64,000 nucleotides of DNA from Candidatus Omnitrophota bacterium (GTDB taxonomy: Bacteria > Omnitrophota > Gorgyraeia > Zapsychrales > Zapsychraceae), in assembly GCA_015233115.1 (NCBI GenBank), contig JADFYJ010000013.1:9670-73669 (forward strand), written 5' to 3'. The position numbers and the translations under genes are program-made. The number at the start of each line of letters is the position of its first letter. Positions within the stretch are counted from its first letter, which is position 1. The notes under the pieces were generated by a model, which was not told where the DNA came from, ran no database searches, and saw nothing but the letters and a program-made list of their open reading frames with translations. Of this stretch, positions 2,407-53,471 are shown one piece after another.

Positions 2407-3048
2407 CTATAACAACCGCAATTTACTTTCTAATGCTTCTAAATCGTTTATCATGTCGGATACCAGGGGTATGACATGCTGATTTTCCTTAGTTACCCGG
2501 AAAATAAATTTTACGCCTGTGGCTTGTGCCGCTTTTAAATCAGACTCCCCATCGCCAATAAAAACCACTTCATTCAAGCCATAATGAAAATCCGCCATGA
2601 TAGACCGGATGATTTTATCTTTAGTCGCCGGAGCGCCATGTATTCTTTCGAAATAATTGCTCAACCCTTTTTGCCGGACAATCAATTGCAATTCCGAATC
2701 CGGTGTTCCGGACGCGATAAAAAACTTATATTGGCTTTTATGTTGTTTTAAAAATTCTTCCGCGCCCTTGACGAGAGGAGCAGACACAACCTGCTCAAAC
2801 ACGATCTGCTCAAATTTTGACGAAAGTTCTTTTTCAATATCTGCCGTATAAGTTTCTTTCAAAATATGCTCATAAAAATAACGGAATTTCACAAAACGCG
2901 TGATGCCGGTGTTCTTCAGATGATGCGCGACACCTTGTTCAGCTAATTGAGACGGCCAAGCTGAAAATAACTGCCGAAATGCCGCAGTTTTAATATGCGC
3001 GGATTCGACAATGACGCCGTCAAAATCAAAAATCACTGCTTTGATCAT
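2407..3048 (-). CDS. HAD-superfamily hydrolase (beta-phosphoglucomutase-like sugar-phosphate phosphatase)
   Basis: HAD motif I AVIFDFDGVIVES, plus the IGDG..D motif near the C-terminus. Confidence 0.75.
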   Translation of the reverse strand: MIKAVIFDFDGVIVESAHIKTAAFRQLFSAWPSQLAEQGVAHHLKNTGITRFVKFRYFYEHILKETYTADIEKELSSKFEQIVFEQVVSAPLVKGAEEFLKQHKSQYKFFIASGTPDSELQLIVRQKGLSNYFERIHGAPATKDKIIRSIMADFHYGLNEVVFIGDGESDLKAAQATGVKFIFRVTKENQHVIPLVSDMINDLEALESKLRLL

Positions 3049-3962
3049 TTTTTACTTTCTAAAACATCTAATAAATTTTGAACAGATTCTATTTCCATAC
3101 GGATCCGGGCTTCCTGGGCATAGGATCCGATATGCGCAGTCAACACCACATTATTGAATTGGCACAATGGACCGGTATAAGGCTCTTGCTCAAACACATC
3201 CAGAGCCGCGCCTTTGATCTTTCCATCCTTCAAATATTCTATGAGCGCGTTTTCATCAACCACTCCGCCGCGGGACGTATTAACCAGCCAGCCTTTCGGT
3301 CCCAAAAGCTCCAGTTCATTTTTCGATATCAAGTGATCAGCTGAGTTGATATGTACCGTAATAATATCCGCCCAGCGCAACAGCTCTGGCATTTCCATTC
3401 TGGGGATATTTAGAAAATCACTTTGATGATACGTATCAAAATACGCCAGCTCACAGCCGAAAGCCTTTAATAATTCCGCCACTTTTTTTCCGATTCGGCC
3501 ATAACCAATGATCCCGACTTTTTTCTCAAATAACAAATGCCCCATTCGCTTATGCCATTGTCCGCCGCGCAGTTCCCTATCCATCATGCTGATCTTACGC
3601 ATCAAATCCAAAATTAAACCGACTGTCAATTCAGCCACAGCTAAGGTCGGCGCGTTAGGAGTGCTTTTTAATATCATGCCTTTTTGATTCATCGCGGGCT
3701 GATCCACATTATCAATTCCGGCGCCGCAGCGTGATATCACTTTTAAACCAGTTAATTGATGGATAACATCAGCAGTCAATTTTTCTGTCCCTGCCACCAA
3801 CCCAATAGAACCTGATACGAGCTTAATAATTTCATCAGCTTTCATGGTGCGGCCATGCGGATTCAACTGGTATTCATAACCAGCCTCTCTGAGTAATTTT
3901 AAAGGCTGATCACTGTATTCAGCGAATGAACTGGTAGAAATAAAAATTTTACCCTTAGCCAT
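3045..3962 (-). CDS. D-isomer-specific 2-hydroxyacid dehydrogenase (phosphoglycerate/glycerate dehydrogenase-like)
   Basis: NAD-binding motif GIIGYGRIGKKVAELL, the catalytic-domain arrangement typical of the SerA/GyaR family, and a 4-nt overlap with neighbouring genes. Confidence 0.75.
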   Translation of the reverse strand: MAKGKIFISTSSFAEYSDQPLKLLREAGYEYQLNPHGRTMKADEIIKLVSGSIGLVAGTEKLTADVIHQLTGLKVISRCGAGIDNVDQPAMNQKGMILKSTPNAPTLAVAELTVGLILDLMRKISMMDRELRGGQWHKRMGHLLFEKKVGIIGYGRIGKKVAELLKAFGCELAYFDTYHQSDFLNIPRMEMPELLRWADIITVHINSADHLISKNELELLGPKGWLVNTSRGGVVDENALIEYLKDGKIKGAALDVFEQEPYTGPLCQFNNVVLTAHIGSYAQEARIRMEIESVQNLLDVLESKK

Positions 3963-38046: not shown

Positions 38047-39060
38047 TTAGCCTATTGATTGATTAAGCTGCATCTTTTTTACAATTTCAAAATAAGGACG
38101 AAGATCTCCGCCAAAGCTCAACTTAAACCACCCCCGCTGAGGACTATTCACGCCTTCTAAATCAACTTCATGGATCCCCTGTTGACTCATGACAGAAAAA
38201 GCATCCCAAAGAACGGCAGTCCCCGTATGCTCATCGCGTAAAGCCGGATCATTGGCACCAAAAATATAATACGCTCGTTTCGGGTCTATCCCGAAATACG
38301 CCATACTCCCTGGTTCGCCATCTTGTGTATAAGAAATAAACATTTTTCCTAAATCTGCGGCATAGGTGTTTACTAACAAATCCTTCATCTCAGTTAAAAC
38401 ATCATCAGCAACTTTAATATCCTGACGATTCATGGTGCGGGCGTAGAAATCCACAAACCGAGCGGCATCGAATTCTTCGACGGTTTTTACTTTCTTTTGA
38501 ATGGCGTAGCGTATTTCTTGACGTCTGGACTTTGAGGCTTTTAAATAAATGCTGATATCTTCCAATTTTTGAGCTTGCGCAAAATCATGGATATCCACAT
38601 AACTGGTATACCGGACATTTACAGAAAATTTAGGTAATTCTGTACCAAAGTTCACCCATAAAAAAGGACGCACATCAATGATAGTGGGATGTAAAGACAA
38701 CTCAATTTTGTTATAGCGCTTCATGAGTTCATCCGCGGCATAAGTGGCGATCAAAAAACGTTCCGATAATATCTGATCGTGATTCTGCCGATGCATAGGA
38801 GCGCCAAATAAAATTCCGGTATAGATCACATAATCATGCGAACAAAACTCCTGGCCATCCGGTGTCGTCACACACAAAAGCGCGGCCCTAAGTTCGGCCC
38901 GATGATAAATATAATAAGGCTTAAAATTCCCACGCAAAGAACGCAAAAAATCAGAGTATAAAAACATTGTCCCGTTTTCTGAAGCAGCGACAAATATATC
39001 CCACTCTCGATCTAATTGAGTTTCAACCAAACGATATTCGTTAACTTGTTCTCTTTGCAT
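38047..39060 (-). CDS. FemAB-like/GNAT-fold acyl- or aminoacyl-transferase (Acetyltransf_6-like)
   Basis: Size and composition resemble FemAB-family transferases; weak motif support only. Confidence 0.4.
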   Translation of the reverse strand: MQREQVNEYRLVETQLDREWDIFVAASENGTMFLYSDFLRSLRGNFKPYYIYHRAELRAALLCVTTPDGQEFCSHDYVIYTGILFGAPMHRQNHDQILSERFLIATYAADELMKRYNKIELSLHPTIIDVRPFLWVNFGTELPKFSVNVRYTSYVDIHDFAQAQKLEDISIYLKASKSRRQEIRYAIQKKVKTVEEFDAARFVDFYARTMNRQDIKVADDVLTEMKDLLVNTYAADLGKMFISYTQDGEPGSMAYFGIDPKRAYYIFGANDPALRDEHTGTAVLWDAFSVMSQQGIHEVDLEGVNSPQRGWFKLSFGGDLRPYFEIVKKMQLNQSIG

Positions 39061-40132
39061 TTAACATCCCGATAATTTCTCCGGAAATGCGATGAATATA
39101 AGCATCATCAATCTCCTGGTTAACCCATAAATTTAAAATATTAGCGCCGATCCACTCACTCACTATCTGCGGCCCGGAAATTTTTCCGCTCATAAAAAAA
39201 CTAGCTGATGGCTGCCAACTGCTAATTTTAAAATTTTGTTTAAGCAAATGGCGGAATACCCGATTACGCTCATCTGAAATAAAAAAGTTAAACCGCCAGT
39301 CTACAGATCCCTCCGGAGGATTAAAAAACTCAACGCCCGACAGCTGGGCTCGATCAAAAATCTGCGTAAATTTCTCCCTATTGGAACGGCGGGCAGCAAT
39401 ATTCGCCTCAATGTTTTCCAATTCTGCGGTTAATTTATCCGCATAATCCAATGAAAATTTGTGCATAAAATTATTTTTAACTAAATGCATTTCATCCTCA
39501 AAACAGAGACATTCGTCCACTCGCCCTTCCAAAAAATATTGATTATAGATCTGCGTATGCCGACGGCTTAATTGATTAATTTTATCTTCAGCCTCTGAGG
39601 AAAATTTCCTAAATCCATTTTGAATAAAAACCATTTCCTCATAAAGTTTCTTATCATTAGTCAAGACCGCACCGCCATGTCCGATATCAATAATTTTTCC
39701 AGCGCCAAAACTCACGACCGAAATATCCCCAAAACTTCCCGCGGGCCGGTGATGAATAGTAGCCCCTTCTGCAAGAGCAAAATCTTCAATCAACGGGATA
39801 TTATTTTCTAAACAAACCTTGGAAATCTCTTCAATATCACAAACCGCTCCATACGCATGAACAGCTATCACCGCGTCAATGTCCCTCACGTTTCTCTTAA
39901 TCTCATCCAGCGAAATTCCCAAATTTCTTTTCGTGACATCCAAATACACCGGCAAATTATTAGAAAGCCTCACCCCAATCGGAACGTTCACACACACATT
40001 ATTCGGGATGGCAATCCGCTTACTCTTTAACCCCAATGCCGTTAAAGCTAGCATAATTCCAGCCGTAGCATTCCCGGTCAAAAGCACATATTCCCGTTGA
40101 TGTAATTTTGACAAAAGCTGTTCAGACTTCAT
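39041..40132 (-). CDS. DegT/DnrJ/EryC1-family aminotransferase (second copy)
   Basis: PLP lysine motif SFGAGKII and fold-type I blocks. Confidence 0.7.
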   Translation of the reverse strand: MKSEQLLSKLHQREYVLLTGNATAGIMLALTALGLKSKRIAIPNNVCVNVPIGVRLSNNLPVYLDVTKRNLGISLDEIKRNVRDIDAVIAVHAYGAVCDIEEISKVCLENNIPLIEDFALAEGATIHHRPAGSFGDISVVSFGAGKIIDIGHGGAVLTNDKKLYEEMVFIQNGFRKFSSEAEDKINQLSRRHTQIYNQYFLEGRVDECLCFEDEMHLVKNNFMHKFSLDYADKLTAELENIEANIAARRSNREKFTQIFDRAQLSGVEFFNPPEGSVDWRFNFFISDERNRVFRHLLKQNFKISSWQPSASFFMSGKISGPQIVSEWIGANILNLWVNQEIDDAYIHRISGEIIGMLNAKRTS

Positions 40133-41427
40133 GTTTTCTCAATCACTCCACATTTTTCTAATTTATGAATCACGGACGACACCAGCTTTTCTTCTATCCC
40201 TAAGCGATAGACCATGTCCGTGACACTCATAGAGCCGTCCATCACAAATAAAACCTTCAAAATCACATCCAATTCCGTCATTCGCATGTTACCAGGAATC
40301 TGTGCTCCGCCGCTTTCCGGATAAAGACCATGCCGGCTTAGCATCACTTCTCCGTGCGGTTCAACCCGGCGGTAAACTTCCCGATTTTCGATTTTATCAA
40401 TAACCTTTAAATAAATCTTTAACGTTTGCTCAATATTCTCCGCAGATACAAAATTTAAATCATCTTGTGAGGTATGATATTGCGGATAATCATAATATTT
40501 ATCTTTGGTCACACTCACAGTATTGATCCGAAAGCCAGGTGAAGAATACTGACGTTCATCACTCCCATGACCGTCAAAAGGGTAAATTTTATATTGTCCT
40601 GCTCCGTATTCGTCGGACAACACCTCAGCAACAATTTGGTTCAAATAATGATCAGCATCCCAACTTTGTTTATATCCCATCATTCCCGGACCGCCGGCCG
40701 TCGTGACAACAAAACCAGCCGCGATTTTTTTCATGATAGTTTCATTATGCGCCAAATACGCAACCGCGCCAATCGTTTCCGGAATCCAAATAAACCGGTA
40801 GCTGTAATTACATTTTTTTTTCGACAATTCGTCCGCTAAAAAGGCGGTTAAAACCAGACCGCTCAGATTATCATTCGCTAATGATGGATGGCAGATATAA
40901 GTTGAGATTAAAATTTCTTGCGGCTTTTTCCCCTTAATAAGCCATTCCCCATAGGTCAAACCGCCGTTTTTAAATTCAGCCTCGATACAAACCTCATACT
41001 CTTCATCCGCATCAATAAATTTTTTATAATCCGCGAAACTTAAACAAAAACCCCAATCTTTTTTGTAATAACTTGTCCGGTAAGGAATCGCTTGCGGATA
41101 ATTTTCTAAATAATGTAAGTGCTTTGCCAGTTCTACGCCTTTTATTTTTTTACATACCGGTTCACTGTAACTAACCACATGCAAATTTGTTTTCTTAAAA
41201 TCAATAATTTTTTCGCCTTGCGCGTTCTTGATCCAAGCATCCTGAATATTCCATTCTTGCGGAACTATCCAATCAAAAACTTTCTGACCCGACGGATATT
41301 CTCCGATTTTGAGCGGGATTAATTCTGATAAAATCCGCAATGTTTCCCTATTCCCTTCGCCCGTAATACTGCGGCAAATCGGAAAAAGCTGTTGCAAATA
41401 GTTTTCTATGTTTTGAACGCGATCCAT
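40129..41427 (-). CDS. Aminopeptidase-like-domain protein with C-terminal winged helix (COG4310-like), polysaccharide-locus associated
   Basis: 432 aa with an M28-like metal-ligand pattern (H..D..E..H); architecture recalled from glycan loci. Confidence 0.4.
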   Translation of the reverse strand: MDRVQNIENYLQQLFPICRSITGEGNRETLRILSELIPLKIGEYPSGQKVFDWIVPQEWNIQDAWIKNAQGEKIIDFKKTNLHVVSYSEPVCKKIKGVELAKHLHYLENYPQAIPYRTSYYKKDWGFCLSFADYKKFIDADEEYEVCIEAEFKNGGLTYGEWLIKGKKPQEILISTYICHPSLANDNLSGLVLTAFLADELSKKKCNYSYRFIWIPETIGAVAYLAHNETIMKKIAAGFVVTTAGGPGMMGYKQSWDADHYLNQIVAEVLSDEYGAGQYKIYPFDGHGSDERQYSSPGFRINTVSVTKDKYYDYPQYHTSQDDLNFVSAENIEQTLKIYLKVIDKIENREVYRRVEPHGEVMLSRHGLYPESGGAQIPGNMRMTELDVILKVLFVMDGSMSVTDMVYRLGIEEKLVSSVIHKLEKCGVIEKT

Positions 41428-42488
41428 TACTCTAACATTTCTTTCAATAATGCTGAATCCTCAGCAATCACCACTTTGGTTCTCCGGCCAATCACCTCAT
41501 CAATCTCCCGGGGAGAAATACCGCACGCCGGACGTTTCCAAGTGAGATCTTCTTTTTCGATCACTTTTCCTTGAGGAATAGTCCTCGCTGCTACTAAACT
41601 CCGCCGCGCATTTTGCCGCGCCGGCTGTTCCGTGGGCCACGATACCACTTCAAAACTCCCGACTAATTCCAAAACCCGCGCCATATTTCTGCGGAACAAT
41701 TTTAAATCATGTTTATCCATCGCGTGATAATGGTCATTTCCCGGGAGAGACTTGTCATGGGTAAAATGTTTTTCCAAAATCCTCGAGCCCAGCACCACCG
41801 CCGTTTCCATAGCCCGCATATCCCACGGCAGGGTGTGATCTGAATAACCAATGATCCTGTCCGGAAACGCCTGCTTCAAACCCAGGATCATGCCCAAATT
41901 GGCATTCCGGTTTTCGGTCGGATAATTAAGGATACAATGCAACAGCGCCAGGGGATTACCAAATGGTTCCACCCACCCCACCGCTTCTTTAACTTCCTCC
42001 AAATTCGACGCCCCAGTTGAAAGGATAATCGGTTTACCAAAGTTACACATCAATTGGATAAAAGGTTTATTAGTCAAATCAGATGATGATATTTTGTAAA
42101 CGCGCATCAAGTTATTCAAAAACGTGGCAGACTCGACATCAAACGGCGTGCTCATGAATTCGATCCCTGCTTGATCACAATACTTTTTTAGTTCTTCAAA
42201 TTCATTTTTCCAAAATTTATCGTGTTTTTTAAAAAGCTCATATTGGCTCCGCGTCGGCTCTTTCGTGGTATCCCAATAAGACGGAGAATTTTTCATGGCT
42301 AGGGTCTGGGCCTTGTAGGACTGAAATTTAACCGCGTCGGCTCCGCCCTCTTTGGCCTCATTGATTAAAAGCTTTGCCAAATCCATGGATCCTTCATGAT
42401 TCACTCCAATTTCCGCGATCACATAAGGATCAGTCACCGGTCTTTCCTGAATCCATTGTTTATTTTTGAATATTTCCAAAATATCCAT
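41427..42488 (-). CDS. NeuB-family nonulosonic acid synthase (copy 2, PseI-like by context)
   Basis: YVIAEIGVNHEGSMDLAK and a C-terminal SAF/antifreeze-like domain. Confidence 0.8.
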   Translation of the reverse strand: MDILEIFKNKQWIQERPVTDPYVIAEIGVNHEGSMDLAKLLINEAKEGGADAVKFQSYKAQTLAMKNSPSYWDTTKEPTRSQYELFKKHDKFWKNEFEELKKYCDQAGIEFMSTPFDVESATFLNNLMRVYKISSSDLTNKPFIQLMCNFGKPIILSTGASNLEEVKEAVGWVEPFGNPLALLHCILNYPTENRNANLGMILGLKQAFPDRIIGYSDHTLPWDMRAMETAVVLGSRILEKHFTHDKSLPGNDHYHAMDKHDLKLFRRNMARVLELVGSFEVVSWPTEQPARQNARRSLVAARTIPQGKVIEKEDLTWKRPACGISPREIDEVIGRRTKVVIAEDSALLKEMLE

Positions 42489-42493
42489 AGCGG

Positions 42494-43198
42494 TTATTTT
42501 CCTTTTAAGATATTTTTAATGATCTGCTCCGCGTCCATATCCGGCGAGACATTCAACTTAGCTAATTTTCCCAGATCTTCGGCCGTGTCAATATCCAATT
42601 TAAGCTCCGGGTGCCACAAAAATTTATTCAAAGGATCAAAAGTTTTAATAGAAAACTTATCCGGATTATCCCAAATGTAATTAAAAACATGTTCCCGCTG
42701 AGCCGGCATTTTAGCTTCACTGTTGATGCGTTCCAAAACGGAACGTGCGACCATCTCCGCGCCTAAACCGTCTGGAAATTTATTATTTCTGGGAATATGG
42801 TTATAAACATAATCACACGGGTTATACATATAAAAATCAATGAGATCATCAATGCATTCCCACGCTATGAACGGATTATCCGCGCAAACCCGGACAATAT
42901 GTGTCGCGTTGACTTTCTGTGCCGCTTGAGCAAACCGGTCAACCACATCATTTTCACTTCCTAAAAAGACCGTACCCCCCTGTTTTCGCACATGATCCGC
43001 TAATACCTGATTGTCGGCTGTATCAGGAATAGCAACGACCACTTGATCAATTTTTGCGGCTTGACTTACCCGGCCTATCACCCAATCGATAAGCGGAGTG
43101 CCCCGCAGCGAAAGCAACATTTTATTGGGCAGTCTGGAAGCGCCCATTCTTGCCTGAATGATGGCTATGACATTATTCGCCATATAAACACCTTTCAA
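42494..43198 (-). CDS. PseF-like CMP-NulO cytidylyltransferase
   Basis: IAIIQARMGASRLPNK signature. The start may be the internal ATG at 43183. Confidence 0.75.
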   Translation of the reverse strand: MKGVYMANNVIAIIQARMGASRLPNKMLLSLRGTPLIDWVIGRVSQAAKIDQVVVAIPDTADNQVLADHVRKQGGTVFLGSENDVVDRFAQAAQKVNATHIVRVCADNPFIAWECIDDLIDFYMYNPCDYVYNHIPRNNKFPDGLGAEMVARSVLERINSEAKMPAQREHVFNYIWDNPDKFSIKTFDPLNKFLWHPELKLDIDTAEDLGKLAKLNVSPDMDAEQIIKNILKGK

Positions 43199-44795
43199 TT
43201 TCCCGCCAAACTTTGAGTTTATTAGTTAAAAAATGAAATGGGCGCATCCGTTCCCACAACTGTTTTCTTAAATGCCCATCAGCACAGAGCGAATGCAAAG
43301 ATTTTATAATTTTCTTTTCCGTCTTCCCTTTACTATAAAGGCCTAAAGCGATATAGCCGTTATCCTGGCAGGCAAATTTATGGGTTTGTTCCCTGTCGTG
43401 ATGGGCAATGATAATCGAAGGAATATTCATATGCGCCAATTCATAAACTGTCCGGCCGTTTGAAGAAATTGCCAGATCCACCCGTTCCATCACTTTCGAC
43501 ATTACTCCGGTTTGATTAGTAAATGATATCCCGGAAAAACTGTTTTGTTCTATAAAATTTCTGAGGACGTCCACATACTCATAACCCGGGCCCGCTACCA
43601 CATGCACCCGGATTTTTTGCTTTTGGCAAAAGGCATAAACCGTATTCAAAACAGTGAAAGTTAAATTACCGGGATCAGTCCCTCCAAAAGTTATTAAAAT
43701 ATCTTGCACCTTTTTCCTAAAAATATATTTTTTAGCTCCAATGAATTCATCCCGCAAAAAATAATATGAGTGGCCCCAGCGATATTGGGCGCCCGGCTTC
43801 AATGGCTCATCAAAGAGCTCATTAAAAACGAGATGGGCACTCTCGCCTCCCGGCCCTAAATCTTCAAAATTAACAACTTTGATCCCTGCTTTTGTCAAAC
43901 TCTTAATGTATTTCGCTTCCGTATTAAGAATGTCATTGATTACGAGATCGGGCTTAAGAGCAATAATACGTTTAATGATCTGCCCTTTGGCACACACCTC
44001 GATAGGATAGTCATGCCCCGCGATCTTCTGAACCGCGTCTGTGCTATCCTTCTCACAAACAAAGATAATTTCATCTTTGGAATTCTCATGCGCCAAGGTC
44101 AAAGCCCGGTAAACATGGCCCATCCCCATAGCATTATTTCCAATCACGCGAAAAATAATCCGTTTTCGTTGTAGCAGACGTTCACAGACCCACCAATCCT
44201 GATAATTTTTTATCTCTAACCAGTTTTCTTCCAATAAATACGGAAACCACTGCATGGGTTGTTTTTGAGCAACCCGGGCCGCTTTAAAAAGCATAAAAGC
44301 CTTAATCTCAACGAAAAAATTCTGGTCATCTTTTTCAGTTTTCAATCCACCTTTATCATTAAGGACAAACTCATGCCTCGTTCCCTTAACTGAAACGACT
44401 CCATCACAATCTTGATTTTTAAAAAAATCATAAGCGCGTCTGAATTCATTTACCGGCACTAAAGGCGCGTACGGCCAAAAAACTAAAACATTTTCCTTGG
44501 ACGCGTATTCCGCAAAAAATTTAGGCAGTTTCCCAATAAAATCATGATCATCGATTTTTAAAATTTTATCATAATAAAAAGCAATTTGGTTACGTTCGCA
44601 AATCAAAGAAATTTCCTCTGAATCCGTGATGACCAATATCTGCGCTAACGGAACCAGCTCTTTCGCCTTATCCATAATCCGCTGAATCAGCATGACCCCG
44701 TCTAATTTTTTAATCAGGTCATCCGCGAAAGCCACATTTTTTTTGACCGCCGGAATAATAATCTGGCAGTCTAAAATTTTATTTTCGTAACTCAT
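43173..44795 (-). CDS. Fusion protein: N-terminal cytidylyltransferase-like domain plus C-terminal PseG-like UDP-sugar hydrolase (GT-B)
   Basis: C-terminal half has the PseG motif GNNAMGMGHVYRALTLA; the N-terminal 200 aa resemble CMP-sugar synthetase folds (IIIPAVKKN..). Confidence 0.65.
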   Translation of the reverse strand: MSYENKILDCQIIIPAVKKNVAFADDLIKKLDGVMLIQRIMDKAKELVPLAQILVITDSEEISLICERNQIAFYYDKILKIDDHDFIGKLPKFFAEYASKENVLVFWPYAPLVPVNEFRRAYDFFKNQDCDGVVSVKGTRHEFVLNDKGGLKTEKDDQNFFVEIKAFMLFKAARVAQKQPMQWFPYLLEENWLEIKNYQDWWVCERLLQRKRIIFRVIGNNAMGMGHVYRALTLAHENSKDEIIFVCEKDSTDAVQKIAGHDYPIEVCAKGQIIKRIIALKPDLVINDILNTEAKYIKSLTKAGIKVVNFEDLGPGGESAHLVFNELFDEPLKPGAQYRWGHSYYFLRDEFIGAKKYIFRKKVQDILITFGGTDPGNLTFTVLNTVYAFCQKQKIRVHVVAGPGYEYVDVLRNFIEQNSFSGISFTNQTGVMSKVMERVDLAISSNGRTVYELAHMNIPSIIIAHHDREQTHKFACQDNGYIALGLYSKGKTEKKIIKSLHSLCADGHLRKQLWERMRPFHFLTNKLKVWREIERCLYGE

Positions 44796-45957
44796 TCAGC
44801 ACGTCCTTGATCGCCTCTTGCAAATATAAAAATTCCTGATCGGTTAACCGATGCTGAAACGGAAAAGAAACCATGTTATCAAAAAATAAATCCGTATTCG
44901 GACAATTTGCCTTATCCAGCTTCAATTTTTTATAAAAATCATATCGGTATAATGGATAATACTGAACCACGCATTGAACACTTTTTTCTGTCGCCATCTT
45001 GCGAATAAAATCATCCCGCTTGCCATGAGTGATCCGTCCGGCCAGTAAATGATAATTATGCCGCACACTATCTTCTCTATGGAATTCCAGTTCAGAGTAA
45101 GATTTTAACGCGTCGATTAAAGAAATAGCCCGTCTGCGCTTTTGGGCATTGATTGGGTCCAGCCGTTGTAATAATTTTGTTCCTAACGCGCATTCCACTT
45201 CACCTAAACAATAATTGTTCGGCCAAACCGGTTCCCCATTCAATTGCGGCATATCCACATTACCCATGGCCGGAATCCAGTAATCTTGGCGTTCAAATGA
45301 AAACGCGCAATGCCCGTTATGTCGAAGTTGGGGAATAATATTGACGAACTTTTCATTATTGACTGCTAATACGCCACCTTCGCCTAAGGTGGTGATATTT
45401 TTATGAGAATGCAAAGAAAATACCGCCAAGTCAGCAAAAGTTCCGGATTGCTTTCCGTTAATACTCCCGCCAATCGACTGCGCGGCGTCTTCAATCACCA
45501 GTAAATTATGTTTTTTAGCCAAAGCCATAATTGAAGGCATATCCGCCACATAGCCGTACAAATGCACCACAATAATCGCTTTGGTTTTAGGAGACAGACA
45601 CCGTTCGATCGTTTCTGCCGTCACTACTCGGGTTTTCAGATCAATGTCTGCCCATACCGGGGTGACGCCTTTTTTCACAAAAGGATACACCGACGAAGTA
45701 AAAGTATGAGCCGGAACGACCACTTCATCTCCGGGTTTAAACTGACCTAATTGAGCGCAGATTTCTAACGCAGCCGTCGCGTTGCACATAGCAAAACATT
45801 TAGGCGAACCAATATATTCAGCAAATTTCTGTTCAAATTCTTTTAGGTATTTACCCTGCGTCAATGGATCCGCTGTTTTCATGGCTGTCACCACAGTCTG
45901 GATCTCGTCTTCGGTATAATCAATCGCGCGCCCGCTAAAAGGAATTTTGTAGGTCAT
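44779..45957 (-). CDS. DegT/DnrJ/EryC1-family aminotransferase (third copy; PseC-like or KdnA-like)
   Basis: PLP lysine motif FSLHSHKNIT. Confidence 0.7.
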   Translation of the reverse strand: MTYKIPFSGRAIDYTEDEIQTVVTAMKTADPLTQGKYLKEFEQKFAEYIGSPKCFAMCNATAALEICAQLGQFKPGDEVVVPAHTFTSSVYPFVKKGVTPVWADIDLKTRVVTAETIERCLSPKTKAIIVVHLYGYVADMPSIMALAKKHNLLVIEDAAQSIGGSINGKQSGTFADLAVFSLHSHKNITTLGEGGVLAVNNEKFVNIIPQLRHNGHCAFSFERQDYWIPAMGNVDMPQLNGEPVWPNNYCLGEVECALGTKLLQRLDPINAQKRRRAISLIDALKSYSELEFHREDSVRHNYHLLAGRITHGKRDDFIRKMATEKSVQCVVQYYPLYRYDFYKKLKLDKANCPNTDLFFDNMVSFPFQHRLTDQEFLYLQEAIKDVLNELRK

Positions 45958-45959
45958 TG

Positions 45960-47030
45960 TTACATCCTTTTAAATAGTGAAATCATTTTTTCATCAGTCA
46001 GGATTTTTCGAAAGTCTTTACCTAACGCATTGGTCAAAGGTTTCTCGTGAATGACTGAAGAATTCAACAATTGCTGATATTTTTCATTGGATAAATTCGC
46101 GCCAATCCCTTTTGGTAATTTAACTTTTTGCTTAGTCATCATGGTCTGATATTCCGCGTATTCCGCCGGATAAAACTCTTCCAAAACATTCATCGCGTAA
46201 CAATTGGCAATACCATGATGCATTTTAAGCGCAATACTTAAACCAGCAGAAACCGGATGGATTACGCCTACATTTCCAGCCGCGCAACCGCCCAGATAAG
46301 AGGCGATCATCATTTTTTCCCGGTTTTCATCACTCATCATATCGGCTGACAAAAAAATCTGCCGGCACATCTCAACCGCTTTTTCCGACAATGCGTCGAC
46401 CACCACATTCCGGTAACTTCCCCGTAACGATTCCACACAATGAAAATATGTATCCATGCCTGTATAAAAATATTGATCCCTGGACACTGTCACCGAAAGA
46501 TCCGGATCCATGATCAGCTGATCAAACATGGTAAAATCACTATTCATACCCAATTTAATTCCCCGGGCTTCATCTGTTAAAACACAAGTCCTCGACGACT
46601 CTGAACCTGTTCCCGACAATGTTGGAATACCAATTTTATAAATTCCCTGACCTTTCACTAAATCCCAACCCTGATACTGCGCGGCTTGTCCGCCATTAGT
46701 CAAAAGGTTGGATAAAGCCTTGGCCACATCCATGGTAATTCCGCCGCCAATACCCACTACGCAATACGGCAATTCACTGCCCACTTGATCTCTCAAATAA
46801 TCAATATCGGTATTTTTAGGTTCGTCTTTAGTATCAATGTAAAAAATTATATCTTTTTTGCCCGTCGGTATTAAATTGATCAAATCCCTGCCTTTAAAAA
46901 AAGCATCAATACAAAATACGACCCGACCGTTTTCAGAATGAGGAACATTCTTCAACAAATCGCCTAAAGCCCGGATAGCTCCTTTACCAAATACATAATA
47001 AGGCACATTTTTAATATTGCGAAAATTCAT
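45960..47030 (-). CDS. Iron-containing (type III) alcohol dehydrogenase family oxidoreductase
   Basis: VVGIGGGITMDVAK glycine motif and metal-binding His residues in the C-terminal half. Confidence 0.7.
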   Translation of the reverse strand: MNFRNIKNVPYYVFGKGAIRALGDLLKNVPHSENGRVVFCIDAFFKGRDLINLIPTGKKDIIFYIDTKDEPKNTDIDYLRDQVGSELPYCVVGIGGGITMDVAKALSNLLTNGGQAAQYQGWDLVKGQGIYKIGIPTLSGTGSESSRTCVLTDEARGIKLGMNSDFTMFDQLIMDPDLSVTVSRDQYFYTGMDTYFHCVESLRGSYRNVVVDALSEKAVEMCRQIFLSADMMSDENREKMMIASYLGGCAAGNVGVIHPVSAGLSIALKMHHGIANCYAMNVLEEFYPAEYAEYQTMMTKQKVKLPKGIGANLSNEKYQQLLNSSVIHEKPLTNALGKDFRKILTDEKMISLFKRM

Positions 47031-47590
47031 GATATAATCTCCTCTCCGGCGATCTCCTTGATAACATAAACAATTTTATCTGCGGGAAGGGCTTCTAAAA
47101 CAACAGCTCTGATCTCTTTACAAATCAACAAATGGCTTCCATCCCCGTGTTCAGGTAAATCCTCCACCTTAGTCAGATGATACGGCCCTTTAAAATGCTG
47201 ACGAAAAGCTAATTCTAATAAATCTGCCAGATCATTAACTCCCACTACGACGAAGTTACTCTCGCCTTGAGTGTTAATTTGTTCAACCAGTTTTTTTAAT
47301 TTTTCGCGGATGGTGCCGATAGAATTGATGGTCTTCATGGTGTAATGAATAGACTTGTTCATTTTTTCAGAAAAGCCTTTAGGGGTCAAAAGATATTGAA
47401 CCTTTTGTTTGTTCAATTGCTGAACACGAACCATTCCTTTAGTTACTAATCTCCGGACAAGTAGATTAATCATGCCCAAAGAAATCCCCATACGTTCAGC
47501 CAAAACGCGTTGATTTACGCCTTCCCCACTGCCGACGATATTCACTAATTCAAATTCACGTTCATCTAGCATAACTTGCCCTCTGTTCAT
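47027..47590 (-). CDS. Winged-helix (MarR-like) transcriptional regulator with C-terminal uncharacterised domain; first gene of the operon
   Basis: wHTH segment VNQRVLAERMGISLGMINLLVRRLVTKGMVRV; RBS GAGGG before the ATG. Confidence 0.6.
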   Translation of the reverse strand: MNRGQVMLDEREFELVNIVGSGEGVNQRVLAERMGISLGMINLLVRRLVTKGMVRVQQLNKQKVQYLLTPKGFSEKMNKSIHYTMKTINSIGTIREKLKKLVEQINTQGESNFVVVGVNDLADLLELAFRQHFKGPYHLTKVEDLPEHGDGSHLLICKEIRAVVLEALPADKIVYVIKEIAGEEIIS

Positions 47591-47598
47591 TAATTGAA

Positions 47599-47626
47599 CA
47601 ACGACACTATTATATTAATTTAATAA
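47599..47626 (-). promoter_or_regulatory. Near-consensus sigma70 promoter: -35 TTGACA, 16-nt spacer, -10 TATAAT
   Basis: The reverse complement of 47599-47626 reads TTGACAtaagttattaaattaaTATAAT, about 30 nt upstream of the regulator start codon. Confidence 0.65.
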
Positions 47627-47660
47627 CTTATGTCAAACAAAAAAGAGACATAAAATAAAT

Positions 47661-47724
47661 AGAAATAAATAGGGACAGAAATAAATAGGGACAGAAATAA
47701 ATAGGGACAGAAATAAATAGGGAC
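47661..47724. repeat. Four perfect tandem copies of the 16-mer AGAAATAAATAGGGAC
   Basis: Direct reading; the array lies immediately upstream of the -35 element of the operon promoter. Confidence 0.9.
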
Positions 47725-47762
47725 AGACGCTATTTTTTTGATTAAAAAATAGCGTCTGTCCC
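47720..47762. terminator. Perfect 19-bp stem / 5-nt loop hairpin flanked by T-rich tracts (bidirectional intrinsic-terminator candidate downstream of the TonB-receptor gene)
   Basis: gggacagacgctatttttt tgatt aaaaaatagcgtctgtccc, followed by ctatttattttttattttatt. Confidence 0.65.
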
Positions 47763-47780
47763 TATTTATTTTTTATTTTA

Positions 47781-49769
47781 TTAAAATTTTAATTCTATAC
47801 CTGCCAACACGTTAAATCTCTCCGCCGGAAAATAATCACGAGTATTAGCAGTCTTTTTCACTTCATACGATGAGTATAATTTATCCAGCATATTGTTCAA
47901 AGACAAATATACCTCAAAGTTCTTAGTTGGCTTATAAGAAATTTTACTTCCCAAGACAAAATATGGCTTAGCTTTAGGCATGGTATTGCCTACATCATTG
48001 ATAATATATCGCTGGCCAACGTAATGACCGAGTAATGAAAAATCAATCTTATCAAAGATCTGCCCATTAAATCCCAGGGCCGCTTGACTCCGGGGAACCA
48101 TCGGGATATCTTTACCGTCAAATACCCCATTTATAAATTCCGGAATTTCATAAGTATAATTCATGAAATACTTCAATTTGCTTAACCACGAATAATTAAC
48201 AAATCTCATAAGATCAAATGTGACACCATTTTCCGCCCCAATTCTACGGGTACGGTCATAATTCTTATCCTGGAACGTATTAGGATCGAAAAATATTTCA
48301 TTTCGATTCTCAATCCAATACGGGGTGCAATCAAATTCGATCCAATCGTGATAATTATGTTTGACCCCTGCTTCAAATTGAATACCTTTCTGCTGATTTA
48401 AAGTTGTATCCAATCCACTCCAAGAACTGTACCATTCATCTGTCGCCAAAAAACGGAAAGTCTGCTGGACATTAAAATGCACATTCGATCCTGCCGCGTA
48501 TTCATACCTGGTTCCTCCCATCGACACCCAGGCATTGGCATCCCGTTTAGTATCCGCGGATCCATTACGCTGATTAAAAGTATAATTGGCCTTCTGATAA
48601 CGGGTACCGGCATTCGCGAATAAATGTTCCAATACCTCAAGTTCGCCGGAACCGTAATAGCCAATTTCATCTTTGGAGATAACTAAATTATCCGTATTAA
48701 ACCGACTGCCGACAATGATGCTTTGATTAGTATAAGTATCAATTCCGGTCACCCAATTGACCTGACGCCCAAAAACCTGGGAATCAAACATGTATTTTCC
48801 TAAAATACCATCCGTCGTCATATAACGATCCGTATTCCACGTCCCGCTGAAAAAAGAATCAAAAACCTCCCGATTCCGATGAGTGTAATCCAAAGCAATT
48901 TTGCCGCCCTTAATCTCCTCGGGCCAAGGATTAATACTCACTGTTGCCTTGTAAAACTCATCATGGGTATTAGAGTGATCTCCAATATCAGCAGAGCCTC
49001 GTCGTCCCAAAGAGACTAATTCATTTTCATCCAGTCCTCCCGGCAACTGGTAATTATCTTTATGAAGACCATATTCAAAATCCAAACCTAAATGATTTCC
49101 CAAATCATATCCCAAACGGGTATTAAAATCTCCACTCACCACGTCGCTATTGGTTCGATACCCACGGTCATCCGCATACTTCGAATGGAAATAATAAGAT
49201 AAACCTTTTTCCGATCCTGAGAGCTGTACATTTCCGCCCTTTTTGTCATAACTGCCATAATAGGATTCAACTTGGCCAGATAACTTTCCTTTGCCTTTTT
49301 TTGTAATAATATTGATCACCCCTCCGACGGCGTTATCCCCGTAAAGCACACTGCCTGCTCCGCGGATGATCTCAATCCGTTCCACGTCTTCCAACGGAAT
49401 CTGTAAAAGATCAGCACCAGAGATGTCAATGGAGTTTGTTTTACGGTCATTCACTAAAACCAACACATTGCTTTTGGCGGTATCACCAAACCCGCGCATA
49501 TCAATGGTCGTGGTCTTAACTGAACCCCGGTCATAAACATAAATCCCCTGAACCTGTTCCAAAATCTGCGGGACAGTTTTCGCCGTGGAATGCTCAATAT
49601 CAAACAGATCAATAACTGTCACATTGCTGGACAATTTATAATCACTCTGACCGATCCGTGAAGCTGTGACCACAATCGGCGCCAAATGATTTTCTTCTGC
49701 GCTAACCCATTCTGCATTCACCAATACTGCTAATAAACATACCAACACCAACAAAAATTTATTTTTCAT
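47781..49769 (-). CDS. TonB-dependent outer-membrane receptor (BtuB-like by context)
   Basis: Signal peptide MKNKFLLVLVCLLAVLVNA, a plug and beta-barrel, and a C-terminal ..ELKF. The ATG at 49769 is preceded by AGGAA; the 15-codon extension in the track overlaps the riboswitch terminator and is rejected. Confidence 0.8.
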   Translation of the reverse strand: MKNKFLLVLVCLLAVLVNAEWVSAEENHLAPIVVTASRIGQSDYKLSSNVTVIDLFDIEHSTAKTVPQILEQVQGIYVYDRGSVKTTTIDMRGFGDTAKSNVLVLVNDRKTNSIDISGADLLQIPLEDVERIEIIRGAGSVLYGDNAVGGVINIITKKGKGKLSGQVESYYGSYDKKGGNVQLSGSEKGLSYYFHSKYADDRGYRTNSDVVSGDFNTRLGYDLGNHLGLDFEYGLHKDNYQLPGGLDENELVSLGRRGSADIGDHSNTHDEFYKATVSINPWPEEIKGGKIALDYTHRNREVFDSFFSGTWNTDRYMTTDGILGKYMFDSQVFGRQVNWVTGIDTYTNQSIIVGSRFNTDNLVISKDEIGYYGSGELEVLEHLFANAGTRYQKANYTFNQRNGSADTKRDANAWVSMGGTRYEYAAGSNVHFNVQQTFRFLATDEWYSSWSGLDTTLNQQKGIQFEAGVKHNYHDWIEFDCTPYWIENRNEIFFDPNTFQDKNYDRTRRIGAENGVTFDLMRFVNYSWLSKLKYFMNYTYEIPEFINGVFDGKDIPMVPRSQAALGFNGQIFDKIDFSLLGHYVGQRYIINDVGNTMPKAKPYFVLGSKISYKPTKNFEVYLSLNNMLDKLYSSYEVKKTANTRDYFPAERFNVLAGIELKF

Positions 49770-49780
49770 GTTTTCCTTTT

Positions 49781-50015
49781 TTTTACAATAAAAAATCCTC
49801 ATCGAGATATTCAATGAGGATCAGTTAACCTTATCTATTTTTCCGGTGGATATGTCTCGCGCACTCCAAAGGATAAATACTTCGGTTGGTACTCTGACTC
49901 GTAATCGGGAGACACGAAACTTAATTTTAAAACCAAATTAAGTATCATGTCCCCCCCTACTTACAGTAGCGGGACTGTTCGTGATTTGCACACGATTCCC
50001 CAAACCGAAATAATT
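49781..50015 (-). ncRNA. Cobalamin riboswitch-like leader with terminator-type expression platform
   Basis: The minus-strand reading contains GGGGAAUCGUGUGCAAAUCACGAACAGUCCCGCUACUGUAAG, matching the conserved GGGAA..GGUG.AAAUCC..GUCCCGC.ACUGUAA B12-box region. At the 3' end is the hairpin AUCCUCAU-11nt-AUGAGGAU plus a U-tract (49781-49821) just before the RBS. Confidence 0.6.
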
Positions 50016-50162
50016 AAAATATGGACGTAATATTTATATATCAGTTTTTAGTTGTTGGTTATTGGCTGTTGGTTAAAAAAAATCGCTTTTAACAAAAACC
50101 AAAAACTATCAACCATCAACATTAAAACCAAATTAAATATTATGTCCCTCTTTAAAGAACAA

Positions 50163-50651: not shown

Positions 50652-50838
50652 ACATTTCTCCTCTTTAAAGTAAAAAGTTAGAAGTAAAAAGTAAAAGTAA
50701 AAACGAAACAAAAAGCTAAAATATAATCAAAAACAAGTAAATCCTTTTTACCACAACTATCTCGCATATACAATTAGATTTTTTGGAAATAATAATAAAT
50801 TATTTGCGAAATAAAAATTTCCGTATAATATACTTTCA

Positions 50839-52399: not shown

Positions 52400-53413
52400 T
52401 TATTGGCGATCAGCGTTTAATAAAACCCCGAAATCTTTAGGAGCAGCAGGATCAGGAACGGAAAAGACCTTTTTTAAAATCATATCCCCTACTTTTGGCA
52501 AAAAATGCGAAGTATCATAATATAACCAATCATTAGTGGTGATCGCGTTCAATCCGGAAAAATCCCAAACCTGGCCGCAAATATTCACGACGGATTTTAA
52601 CCAATAGCTATATTCTTCTTTCGTAAATGATTTAAACGCGTATTGAGAGTAAGGATTAATAATCACAATGCGGGGAATTTTTTCCTGGTCGATAAAATTC
52701 ATCAAACGTTTTAACCGTTCCAAATTAACCGCGACCCGGTCCAATTTACCTCTCACATACGGAATTTCCATTTTAAACCGTTCTTTGAAATATTTGGCAT
52801 GATCCTTAACGATCGCCTGATCACGGTCAACATAATACCAATGCCCCGTAGTTTGATCAAATTGATAAGACGCGGGTTTATGACGGAGAATAACGTCACG
52901 AAAGGCTTTACGCCAATTATTAAAATCAAAATTTAAGGCAAACGGCGGATAAAAACTAAACCAGCTCTCTCCGCTCACCAAGGGATGTTCTTTAGCCTCG
53001 ATAGCATTTTTAGGAAAATCATCCACCAAAAACATAAAATCATAATCCAGGCCTAAAATCACTTGTTTTATTTTTATGTTGCGTTTTTTTAACCAAACTA
53101 ATTCATTCAAAATCAGATCCAATTTTTCCGCAGCCGCGGAAAAACTGTAATAATGAAGACCGGATAATTGAGAAGCGAGTTTCGCGGCATAAAAATTTGT
53201 CCGGGAAGATCCCACGATAAAAGCATCATAGTCATCCGGATGGGCATTTAAAAATTTCACTTTCAAATAGCGAAAATTCGCGCTGACATTTGTATTATTA
53301 AAATGAGAAATACCAAAAATACGATATATATCCCACAGCACGTTCATGGAAATCACGAAACTGATCGCGAGCGTTACAATGGTAATAAAAATTAGATTAT
53401 ATTTTTTTTCCAT
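52400..53413 (-). CDS. DltD-like SGNH-fold membrane-anchored protein (second copy)
   Basis: N-terminal TM, IVGSSR Ser block, and later D-x-x-H (DTSHF). The ATG at 53413 is used; the GTG extension in the track lies in the palindrome. Confidence 0.5.
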   Translation of the reverse strand: MEKKYNLIFITIVTLAISFVISMNVLWDIYRIFGISHFNNTNVSANFRYLKVKFLNAHPDDYDAFIVGSSRTNFYAAKLASQLSGLHYYSFSAAAEKLDLILNELVWLKKRNIKIKQVILGLDYDFMFLVDDFPKNAIEAKEHPLVSGESWFSFYPPFALNFDFNNWRKAFRDVILRHKPASYQFDQTTGHWYYVDRDQAIVKDHAKYFKERFKMEIPYVRGKLDRVAVNLERLKRLMNFIDQEKIPRIVIINPYSQYAFKSFTKEEYSYWLKSVVNICGQVWDFSGLNAITTNDWLYYDTSHFLPKVGDMILKKVFSVPDPAAPKDFGVLLNADRQ

Positions 53414-53420
53414 AGACCAT

Positions 53421-53465
53421 GGGACCACCGCGTAGGTGGACCATTGGTCCACCTACGCGGTGGTC
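53421..53465. repeat. 45-bp perfect GC-rich palindrome (22-bp arms)
   Basis: ggaccaccgcgtaggtggacca t tggtccacctacgcggtggtcc, intergenic between the CcdA-like and DltD-like genes. Confidence 0.85.
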
Positions 53466-53471
53466 CAGCGG

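Follow-up and report, generated by a model that had tools for sequence, protein, structure and literature searches.

The locus lies in a contig of a Candidatus Omnitrophota MAG, of which a 64-kb stretch (the window) was analyzed as a whole. According to the list of open reading frames (ORFs) of the window, all of the relevant genes and features are on the minus strand, and along the direction of transcription they are arranged as a cobalamin riboswitch, a TonB-dependent receptor gene, a palindrome, a tandem array, a spacer, a promoter, an operator palindrome (putative), a regulator gene, and a sugar operon. The features are as follows, with no strand given for the repeats and palindromes.

49867 to 50024, minus strand: cobalamin riboswitch, in the leader of the receptor gene listed next (Rfam RF00174, E 2.5e-10; 49.1 bits, gathering score 31.5)
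47781 to 49814, minus strand: TonB-dependent receptor gene, with a Plug domain and a beta-barrel (ORF list; Pfam PF07715 and PF00593)
47711 to 47771: perfect 61-nt palindrome of the AAATAGGGACAGACGCTATTTTT arm family, with arms at 47711-47738 and 47744-47771 and a loop at 47739-47743
47661 to 47727: tandem array of 4.2 perfect copies of AGAAATAAATAGGGAC (CTGTCCCTATTTATTT on the transcribed strand), from TRF
47653 to 47662: 10-nt partial unit AAATAAATAG flanking the array, from TRF and a repeat search
47609 to 47636, minus strand: sigma-70-type promoter TTGACA-16-TATAAT, with the -35 hexamer at 47636-47631 and the -10 hexamer at 47614-47609
47584 to 47600: palindrome TGTTCA-N5-TGAACA, a putative operator at about +3 to +19, found in 6 of 6 lineages
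47027 to 47572, minus strand: wHTH regulator gene of 181 aa (Pfam HTH_24/MarR), with an ATG start codon at 47572 and a Shine-Dalgarno sequence, GAGGG, at 47583-47579
39041 to 47030, minus strand: nonulosonic-acid-type sugar operon of seven genes (ORFs; Pfam)

The receptor stop codon is at 47783-47781, and the true start of the gene is likely near 49769 (MKNKF...). The sugar operon codes for an Fe-ADH-like protein, a DegT aminotransferase, a 540-aa protein, a cytidylyltransferase, NeuB, a DUF4910 protein, and a second DegT protein. Cobalamin riboswitches are located at 3545-3720 in the related locus L001 and at 1419-1610 in L031, as well as at 49867-50024 (minus strand) in the window. There are also other repeats elsewhere in the window. 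The sole other long perfect palindrome is GC-rich and 45 bp long (53422-53466), with 22-nt arms and 1 nt between them (GGACCACCGCGTAGGTGGACCA / TGGTCCACCTACGCGGTGGTCC), and it closely precedes the likely start of a minus-strand ORF whose end is at 52400. Two 8-bp tandem-repeat arrays at 2141-2179 and 2234-2271 (AGTAACCG and AAGTAACA, with AAAAACTAnCnAAACCGCGTGCCC after each) represent an ∼95-bp duplicated segment upstream of the minus-strand ORF at 1246 to 2190. An (AAAGTAA)n / 13-bp tandem repeat is present at 50667-50703, at the 5' edge of a DUF6580 ORF and probably upstream of the real start of that gene.

The TTGACA-16-TATAAT promoter proposed in an earlier, sequence-only reading of this DNA is confirmed at 12 of 12 positions (minus strand, 47636 to 47609); the exact pattern has a single match in the window, with 0.08 expected, and this consensus promoter would drive the sugar operon. 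Over 181 aa the regulator shows 100% identity to P0001, an NCBI Omnitrophica protein, with the next-best homologue at 57%, and its match to TIGR04176 (EPS-associated MarR), at an E value of 3.4e-16, is below the cut-off of that model. A structure model (m9917980cf60a, pLDDT 85) shows a winged helix, a 39-residue helix, and a small alpha/beta C-terminal domain. A PDB fold search with the model gave no significant match; alignments to Lrp/AsnC and MarR proteins are confined to the wHTH domain. We note a weak resemblance of the alpha/beta C-terminal domain to phosphoribosyltransferase-like folds. Exact-protein look-ups with the regulator (from both possible starts), P0001, and the next gene found no contig.

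Loci carrying regulator homologues in five other lineages (L001, L029, L031, L032, and L040-47) were compared with the window. These homologues are 48 to 57% identical to the window regulator and are mostly at the head of, or within, sugar/polysaccharide clusters, and two of the loci (L001 and L031) are syntenic with the window, with MTHFR, the TonB receptor, and the regulator in this order. In all six lineages, the window included, TTGAC(A/C/T)-16-TATAAT precedes the regulator gene and is followed, within 0 to 7 nt of the -10 box, by TGTTCA-N5-TGAAC(A/G) (at position 5913 in L001, 3944 in L029, 3930 in L031, 2943 and 3022 in L032, and 1439 in L040). The promoter-plus-operator module occurs twice in tandem before the L032 homologue (2914-3040). 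TGTTCA-N5-TGAACA is absent away from the regulator promoters in the loci of the five relatives, and the tandem array is absent upstream of the regulator in all of them. A second perfect TGTTCA-N5-TGAACA is present in the window at 47410-47426, inside the regulator coding sequence where it encodes VQQLN, and there is no other. The operator is likely to be TGTTCA-N5-TGAACA over the transcription start, and not the array, with MarR-type autorepression predicted; the MarR_EPS-like protein would act on this palindrome and probably regulates its own expression, a pairing of operator and regulator that we infer from their joint conservation. The array is unnecessary to explain regulation.

No perfect short-range palindrome in the window is longer than the one after the receptor gene, which begins 9 nt past the receptor stop codon. 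The sequence-only reading had described a perfect hairpin with a 19-bp stem, and although there is indeed a hairpin, its arms are 28 nt long and perfectly complementary around a 5-nt loop, and the end given earlier (47762) cuts the right arm. The minus-strand hairpin RNA folds at -45.5 kcal/mol, compared with -13.8 +/- 2.8 kcal/mol in shuffles (z = -11). Both strands score as intrinsic terminators, with 20 counted pairs of which 8 are G-C, loops of 5 to 7 nt, and T-rich tails (TTTATTTCTG and TTTATTTTTT), so that a G-C stem-loop with a T-rich tract is available in either direction at the 3' end of a transcription unit. At the same position between receptor and regulator, the relatives L001 and L031 have ordinary terminator hairpins and no repeats. 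Because the terminator features are on both strands and the position is equivalent to that of the terminators in relatives, the palindrome is predicted to be a bidirectional intrinsic terminator, in line with the earlier reading. It would act at the 3' end of the receptor gene and insulate this B12-riboswitch-controlled gene from the sugar operon. Rfam searches with the hairpins of the window, L017, and L024 gave nothing at gathering score and no family match; sub-threshold matches to plastid 3' UTR hairpins and miRNA precursors were rejected as generic long AT-rich hairpins. A hairpin in the operon leader was rejected because the hairpin sits upstream of the promoter, and an invertible promoter was rejected because only 5 nt separate the inverted arms.

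Four perfect 16-bp tandem repeats had been reported at 47661-47724, and TRF bears this out, finding 4.2 copies at 100% matches across 47661-47727 (period 16), with a score of 134 that is the maximum in the window; the next score is 63. Repeats, hairpin, and promoter all exceed by far what chance would produce. The array had been placed about 35 bp upstream of the promoter, but the measured distance from its end to the -35 hexamer is 24 bp of AT-rich spacer, and, counted from the predicted transcription start, the array covers about -59 to -125. No ORF spans it, and the 16-mer has no match elsewhere in the window at up to 2 mismatches. On the plus strand the unit reads AAATAAATAGGGACAG and corresponds to the outermost 16 nt of the promoter-side (left) hairpin arm. 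Of the array copies, the one closest to the hairpin (47711-47727) forms the outer portion of this arm, and the right hairpin arm holds a complete fifth unit in inverted orientation. As read on the transcribed strand (CTGTCCCTATTTATTT), the unit has no dyad symmetry and only weakly resembles the operator half-site. The outermost unit and its left flank (47651-47679) are 83% complementary to the hairpin far flank (47755-47783), and in silico removal of three units gives one longer, near-continuous hairpin of equal stability. These relationships suggest a longer ancestral palindrome that gained three extra units (48 bp) through tandem duplication, presumably recently, because all copies are identical, although we note that selection or gene conversion would also give the same picture of four identical copies.

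Judged by sequence similarity, the window hairpin is a member of a low-copy dispersed family of paired and solo arms in Omnitrophota, Desulfobaccales, and other metagenomic contigs. The arm consensus, (A)AATAGGGACAGACGCTATTTTT, also written (g)aaAAATAGGGACAGACGCTATTTTT, is itself a small palindrome, AAAATAG-N9-CTATTTT, and the conserved arms are 21 to 28 nt long. The arm 19-mer TAGGGACAGACGCTATTTT was found in 13 stretches of a species-representative genome collection, 12 of them distinct (L003 duplicates L001), with a chance expectation of ∼4 by arithmetic estimate; these matches include three loci in the Omnitrophota MAG JADFYE01 and six in the 'Deltaproteobacteria' MAG JACQYN01. It is also present in 14 metagenome stretches. 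Viral contigs gave no matches for the 19-mer or for the paired-arm pattern, and plasmid and phage BLAST searches gave no match. Inverted arm pairs are present at 13 non-redundant loci (window included), with 5 to ∼140 nt between the arms, and these cannot be due to chance. Solo arms are present at about a dozen loci, several with the extended consensus, and the partner arm in L010 is degenerate; the solo 19-mer matches without flanking consensus (L005, L006/15, L016, L020-22, L026, and L027, the last inside a cyclophilin gene) may be chance occurrences. The per-genome maximum is six exact 19-mer loci, a count of exact matches only and in incomplete MAGs. The window has one copy, and a search of the window and roughly 250 kb of loci with an nhmmer arm profile turned up no additional diverged copies.

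The high-GC carriers are Desulfobaccales, as shown by the HisD encoded beside the L017 copy, which is 88 to 97% identical to Desulfobaccales or Thermodesulfobacteriota proteins, and the L023 copy is within a 67%-GC contig; the arm sequence is identical in phyla of 35% and 60% GC. The element is usually 1 to 25 nt past a stop codon, and its neighbor genes are functionally unrelated, including those for a methyltransferase, PIN, BrkB, HisD, SDR, GT2, and MazG, among others. Variant arms have no compensating change in the partner arm, and decaying mobile copies therefore fit better than a selected RNA structure. We note that a Desulfobaccales subgroup (L004, L010, L011, L012 [JACQYN01], and L025 [Ga0233425]) has a homologous internal segment of ∼35 nt (…CCTGAGC…CCTTTCAGTTTTT), and that L017 to L019 have the same arm spacing as this subgroup with unrelated internal sequence. 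Literature searches with the core 11-mer returned unrelated primers and aptamers only, and a search for Omnitrophota repeats found no paper.

The positions of the element vary among relatives. In Omnitrophota, it is downstream of the receptor in the window, where L001 and L031 have other terminators. In L001, the element is instead found ahead of the orthologous receptor gene, within the cobalamin riboswitch, in its variable P6-extension hairpin; the window riboswitch carries an unrelated hairpin at the P6-extension position. A structured RNA thus tolerates the element, since in L001 it forms the P6-extension hairpin. Within Desulfobaccales, the hisD-GCHY1 spacer of L017 contains the element, which is absent in seven close-relative contigs (L033-L039) with HisD proteins 90 to 95% identical. 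In L008 (JADFYE010000002.1, about 2004-2366), a solo arm is located exactly at the break-off of an AbiEii-like toxin ORF and adjoins out-of-order DUF2075-like fragments, and this site may be a rearrangement junction. No target-site duplication was found at the arm boundaries of L002, L004, L017, L018, and the window, and no transposase or RAYT is present among the scanned neighbors of the copies, the YhgA-like gene near L020 being unrelated. Solo arms have no partner arm within up to 14 kb. Because copy number is low and there are no target-site duplications or linked transposases, it is from the presence/absence comparisons that mobility of the element is argued.

Duplication of the outer arm was seen in 3 of ∼15 paired elements. 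L024 has two copies of an outer-arm duplication (AAATAGGGACACA adjoining AAATAGGGACAGA) before its left arm, and at the right arm of L010 there are about three short blocks of CCCCTATTT. Outer-arm amplification therefore recurs in the family, in a pattern consistent with slippage at a replication-blocking hairpin, and a function of the repeated motifs is less likely, although the frequency of these duplications means that the duplicated motif itself could be functional.

In architecture, the element is closest to REPINs, which are REP doublets that form hairpins and are mobilized by RAYT transposases (PMC3116915, PMC3337134, PMC2817692). As in REPs and REPINs, the sequences are short and extragenic, inverted arm pairs form a hairpin and solo arms resemble decayed remnants, there is no target-site duplication, tandem higher-order arrangements occur, and presence or absence varies between relatives. 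In contrast, there are at most six exact arms per genome, whereas REPs number in the hundreds (with >100 the typical criterion), the arm stem is rich in AT where that of REPs is rich in GC, the scanned neighbors include no RAYT, and the arm is common to several phyla, whereas REP families are normally lineage-specific. Further, it is part of one arm that is amplified here, rather than whole REPIN units.

MITEs that double as terminators, such as the Correia elements of Neisseria, are also similar in having terminal inverted repeats, an intergenic site, a hairpin RNA that may terminate transcription, and polymorphism in presence or absence. They differ in that the element described here lacks a target-site duplication and a known parent IS, its internal sequence is homologous in one Desulfobaccales subgroup only, and some members are essentially two abutting arms with a 5-nt loop. 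Bidirectional intrinsic terminators share the GC-containing stem, the flanking A-tract and T-tract, and the location right after a stop codon and between transcription units. However, ordinary terminators show neither sequence conservation between unrelated genes or phyla nor tandem copies of one shoulder, and this element has both. Membership in the REPINs or the MITEs is not established, and the element is filed as a small dispersed palindromic intergenic element in the general kind, the cross-phylum arm identity being its surprising trait.

The reading that we favor, with moderate confidence, is that this is a REPIN/MITE-like bidirectional terminator element, one arm of which has been amplified by slippage into an array with no dedicated regulatory role. 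The outer 16 bp of the promoter-side arm, together with the adjoining AT-rich flank, would have been amplified from one to four tandem copies, presumably when replication slipped or re-aligned wrongly at the hairpin base, leaving the array as a by-product in an untranscribed spacer between terminator and promoter. Such an arm-amplification history is indicated because the unit is the outer arm, a fifth copy is inverted in the opposite arm, and the far flanks are 83% complementary. The relatives without an array are distant, at 48 to 57% regulator identity, and it is possible that the array has a function specific to this lineage.

A different and unlikely account, in which the array is not a neutral accident, is that these elements are a new low-copy mobile palindromic family in Omnitrophota, Desulfobaccales, and at least one high-GC lineage, with a 21- to 24-nt arm kept identical by a horizontally shared trans-acting enzyme; the array would then be the footprint of this candidate enzyme or of hairpin-driven processing where GGGACAG meets ACGC. 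It is quite unlikely, in our view, that the machinery mobilizing the family left the array as its footprint or uses it as a working part, with the arm as the recognition site of a candidate trans-acting enzyme (an HUH/RAYT-like nuclease or transposase) and the outer-arm direct repeats as extra binding sites or as products of repeated nicking and re-joining. The identity of the arm across phyla of very different GC content is in keeping with such machinery, as are the small palindrome within each arm, the recurrent outer-arm duplications, and the position of the L008 solo arm exactly at a gene-truncation junction. The window and L024 also share the duplication end point, GGGACA(G/C) before an A, but this common breakpoint amounts to two cases, and the duplicated blocks in L010 are shorter. 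Moreover, neither a transposase nor a RAYT is beside any copy examined, there are no target-site duplications, and the copy number is low.

The sequence-only reading had proposed an iteron-like array bound by the adjacent wHTH regulator. In a broader form, the sites could bind the regulator, another activator, or a nucleoid protein and tune the promoter from upstream, and the array does occupy, at about -59 to -125, the typical upstream-activator zone with perfectly identical copies. There is also a parallel in the Neisseria nadA promoter, where the MarR-family protein NadR acts beside an upstream TAAA tract. In both cases, a tract upstream of the -35 box is found with a MarR-type regulator and a surface-structure operon, although the unit here is 16 bp, is derived from a palindromic element, and there is a conserved operator elsewhere. 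Protein-binding repeats are nevertheless distinctly improbable. None of the other five lineages has an array before the regulator; what all six conserve is another palindrome, at +1. The unit is the outer arm of a dispersed palindromic element that is also located beside unrelated genes. The unit lacks a dyad and has little likeness to the operator half-site, and a 16-bp period would place successive sites on opposite faces of the helix. The iteron claim is thus not upheld.

It is very unlikely that the array is a phase-variable contingency locus, the alternative offered in the sequence-only reading, in which gain or loss of 16-bp units would alter expression of the surface-sugar operon. Although perfect tandem repeats slip readily and surface nonulosonic-acid-type sugars are classic phase-variation targets, a 16-bp unit in four copies slips much less often than units of 1 to 8 bp. 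The array is outside both the -35/-10 spacer and the coding sequence, and its copy number leaves the core promoter unchanged; the best other regulator homologue is 57% identical, and the exact-protein look-ups found nothing. An assembly artefact in array copy number is highly improbable, since, although assembly of a MAG contig can mis-collapse or mis-expand tandem repeats, a 67-bp array should be shorter than typical reads and the largest assembly k-mers, and comparable duplications of part of an arm occur in assemblies made independently.

The array itself is probably a mutational by-product, and its annotation as a binding site, tempting as that is, is corrected here, as the repeats are probably not the sites of the regulator. 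The two useful products of this locus are the conserved operator of an Omnitrophota regulator family and a cross-phylum palindromic element. TGTTCA-N5-TGAACA is a concrete candidate operator for a family of regulators found at the head of surface-sugar gene clusters throughout Omnitrophota, an uncultured phylum. For REP-like repeats, an arm identical between phyla of 35% and 60% GC is unusual, and may point to groundwater and sediment bacteria that occur together having exchanged it horizontally or having a recognition factor in common. As a portable bidirectional terminator, should it prove to be one, the element would also offer a compact natural part for transcriptional insulation.
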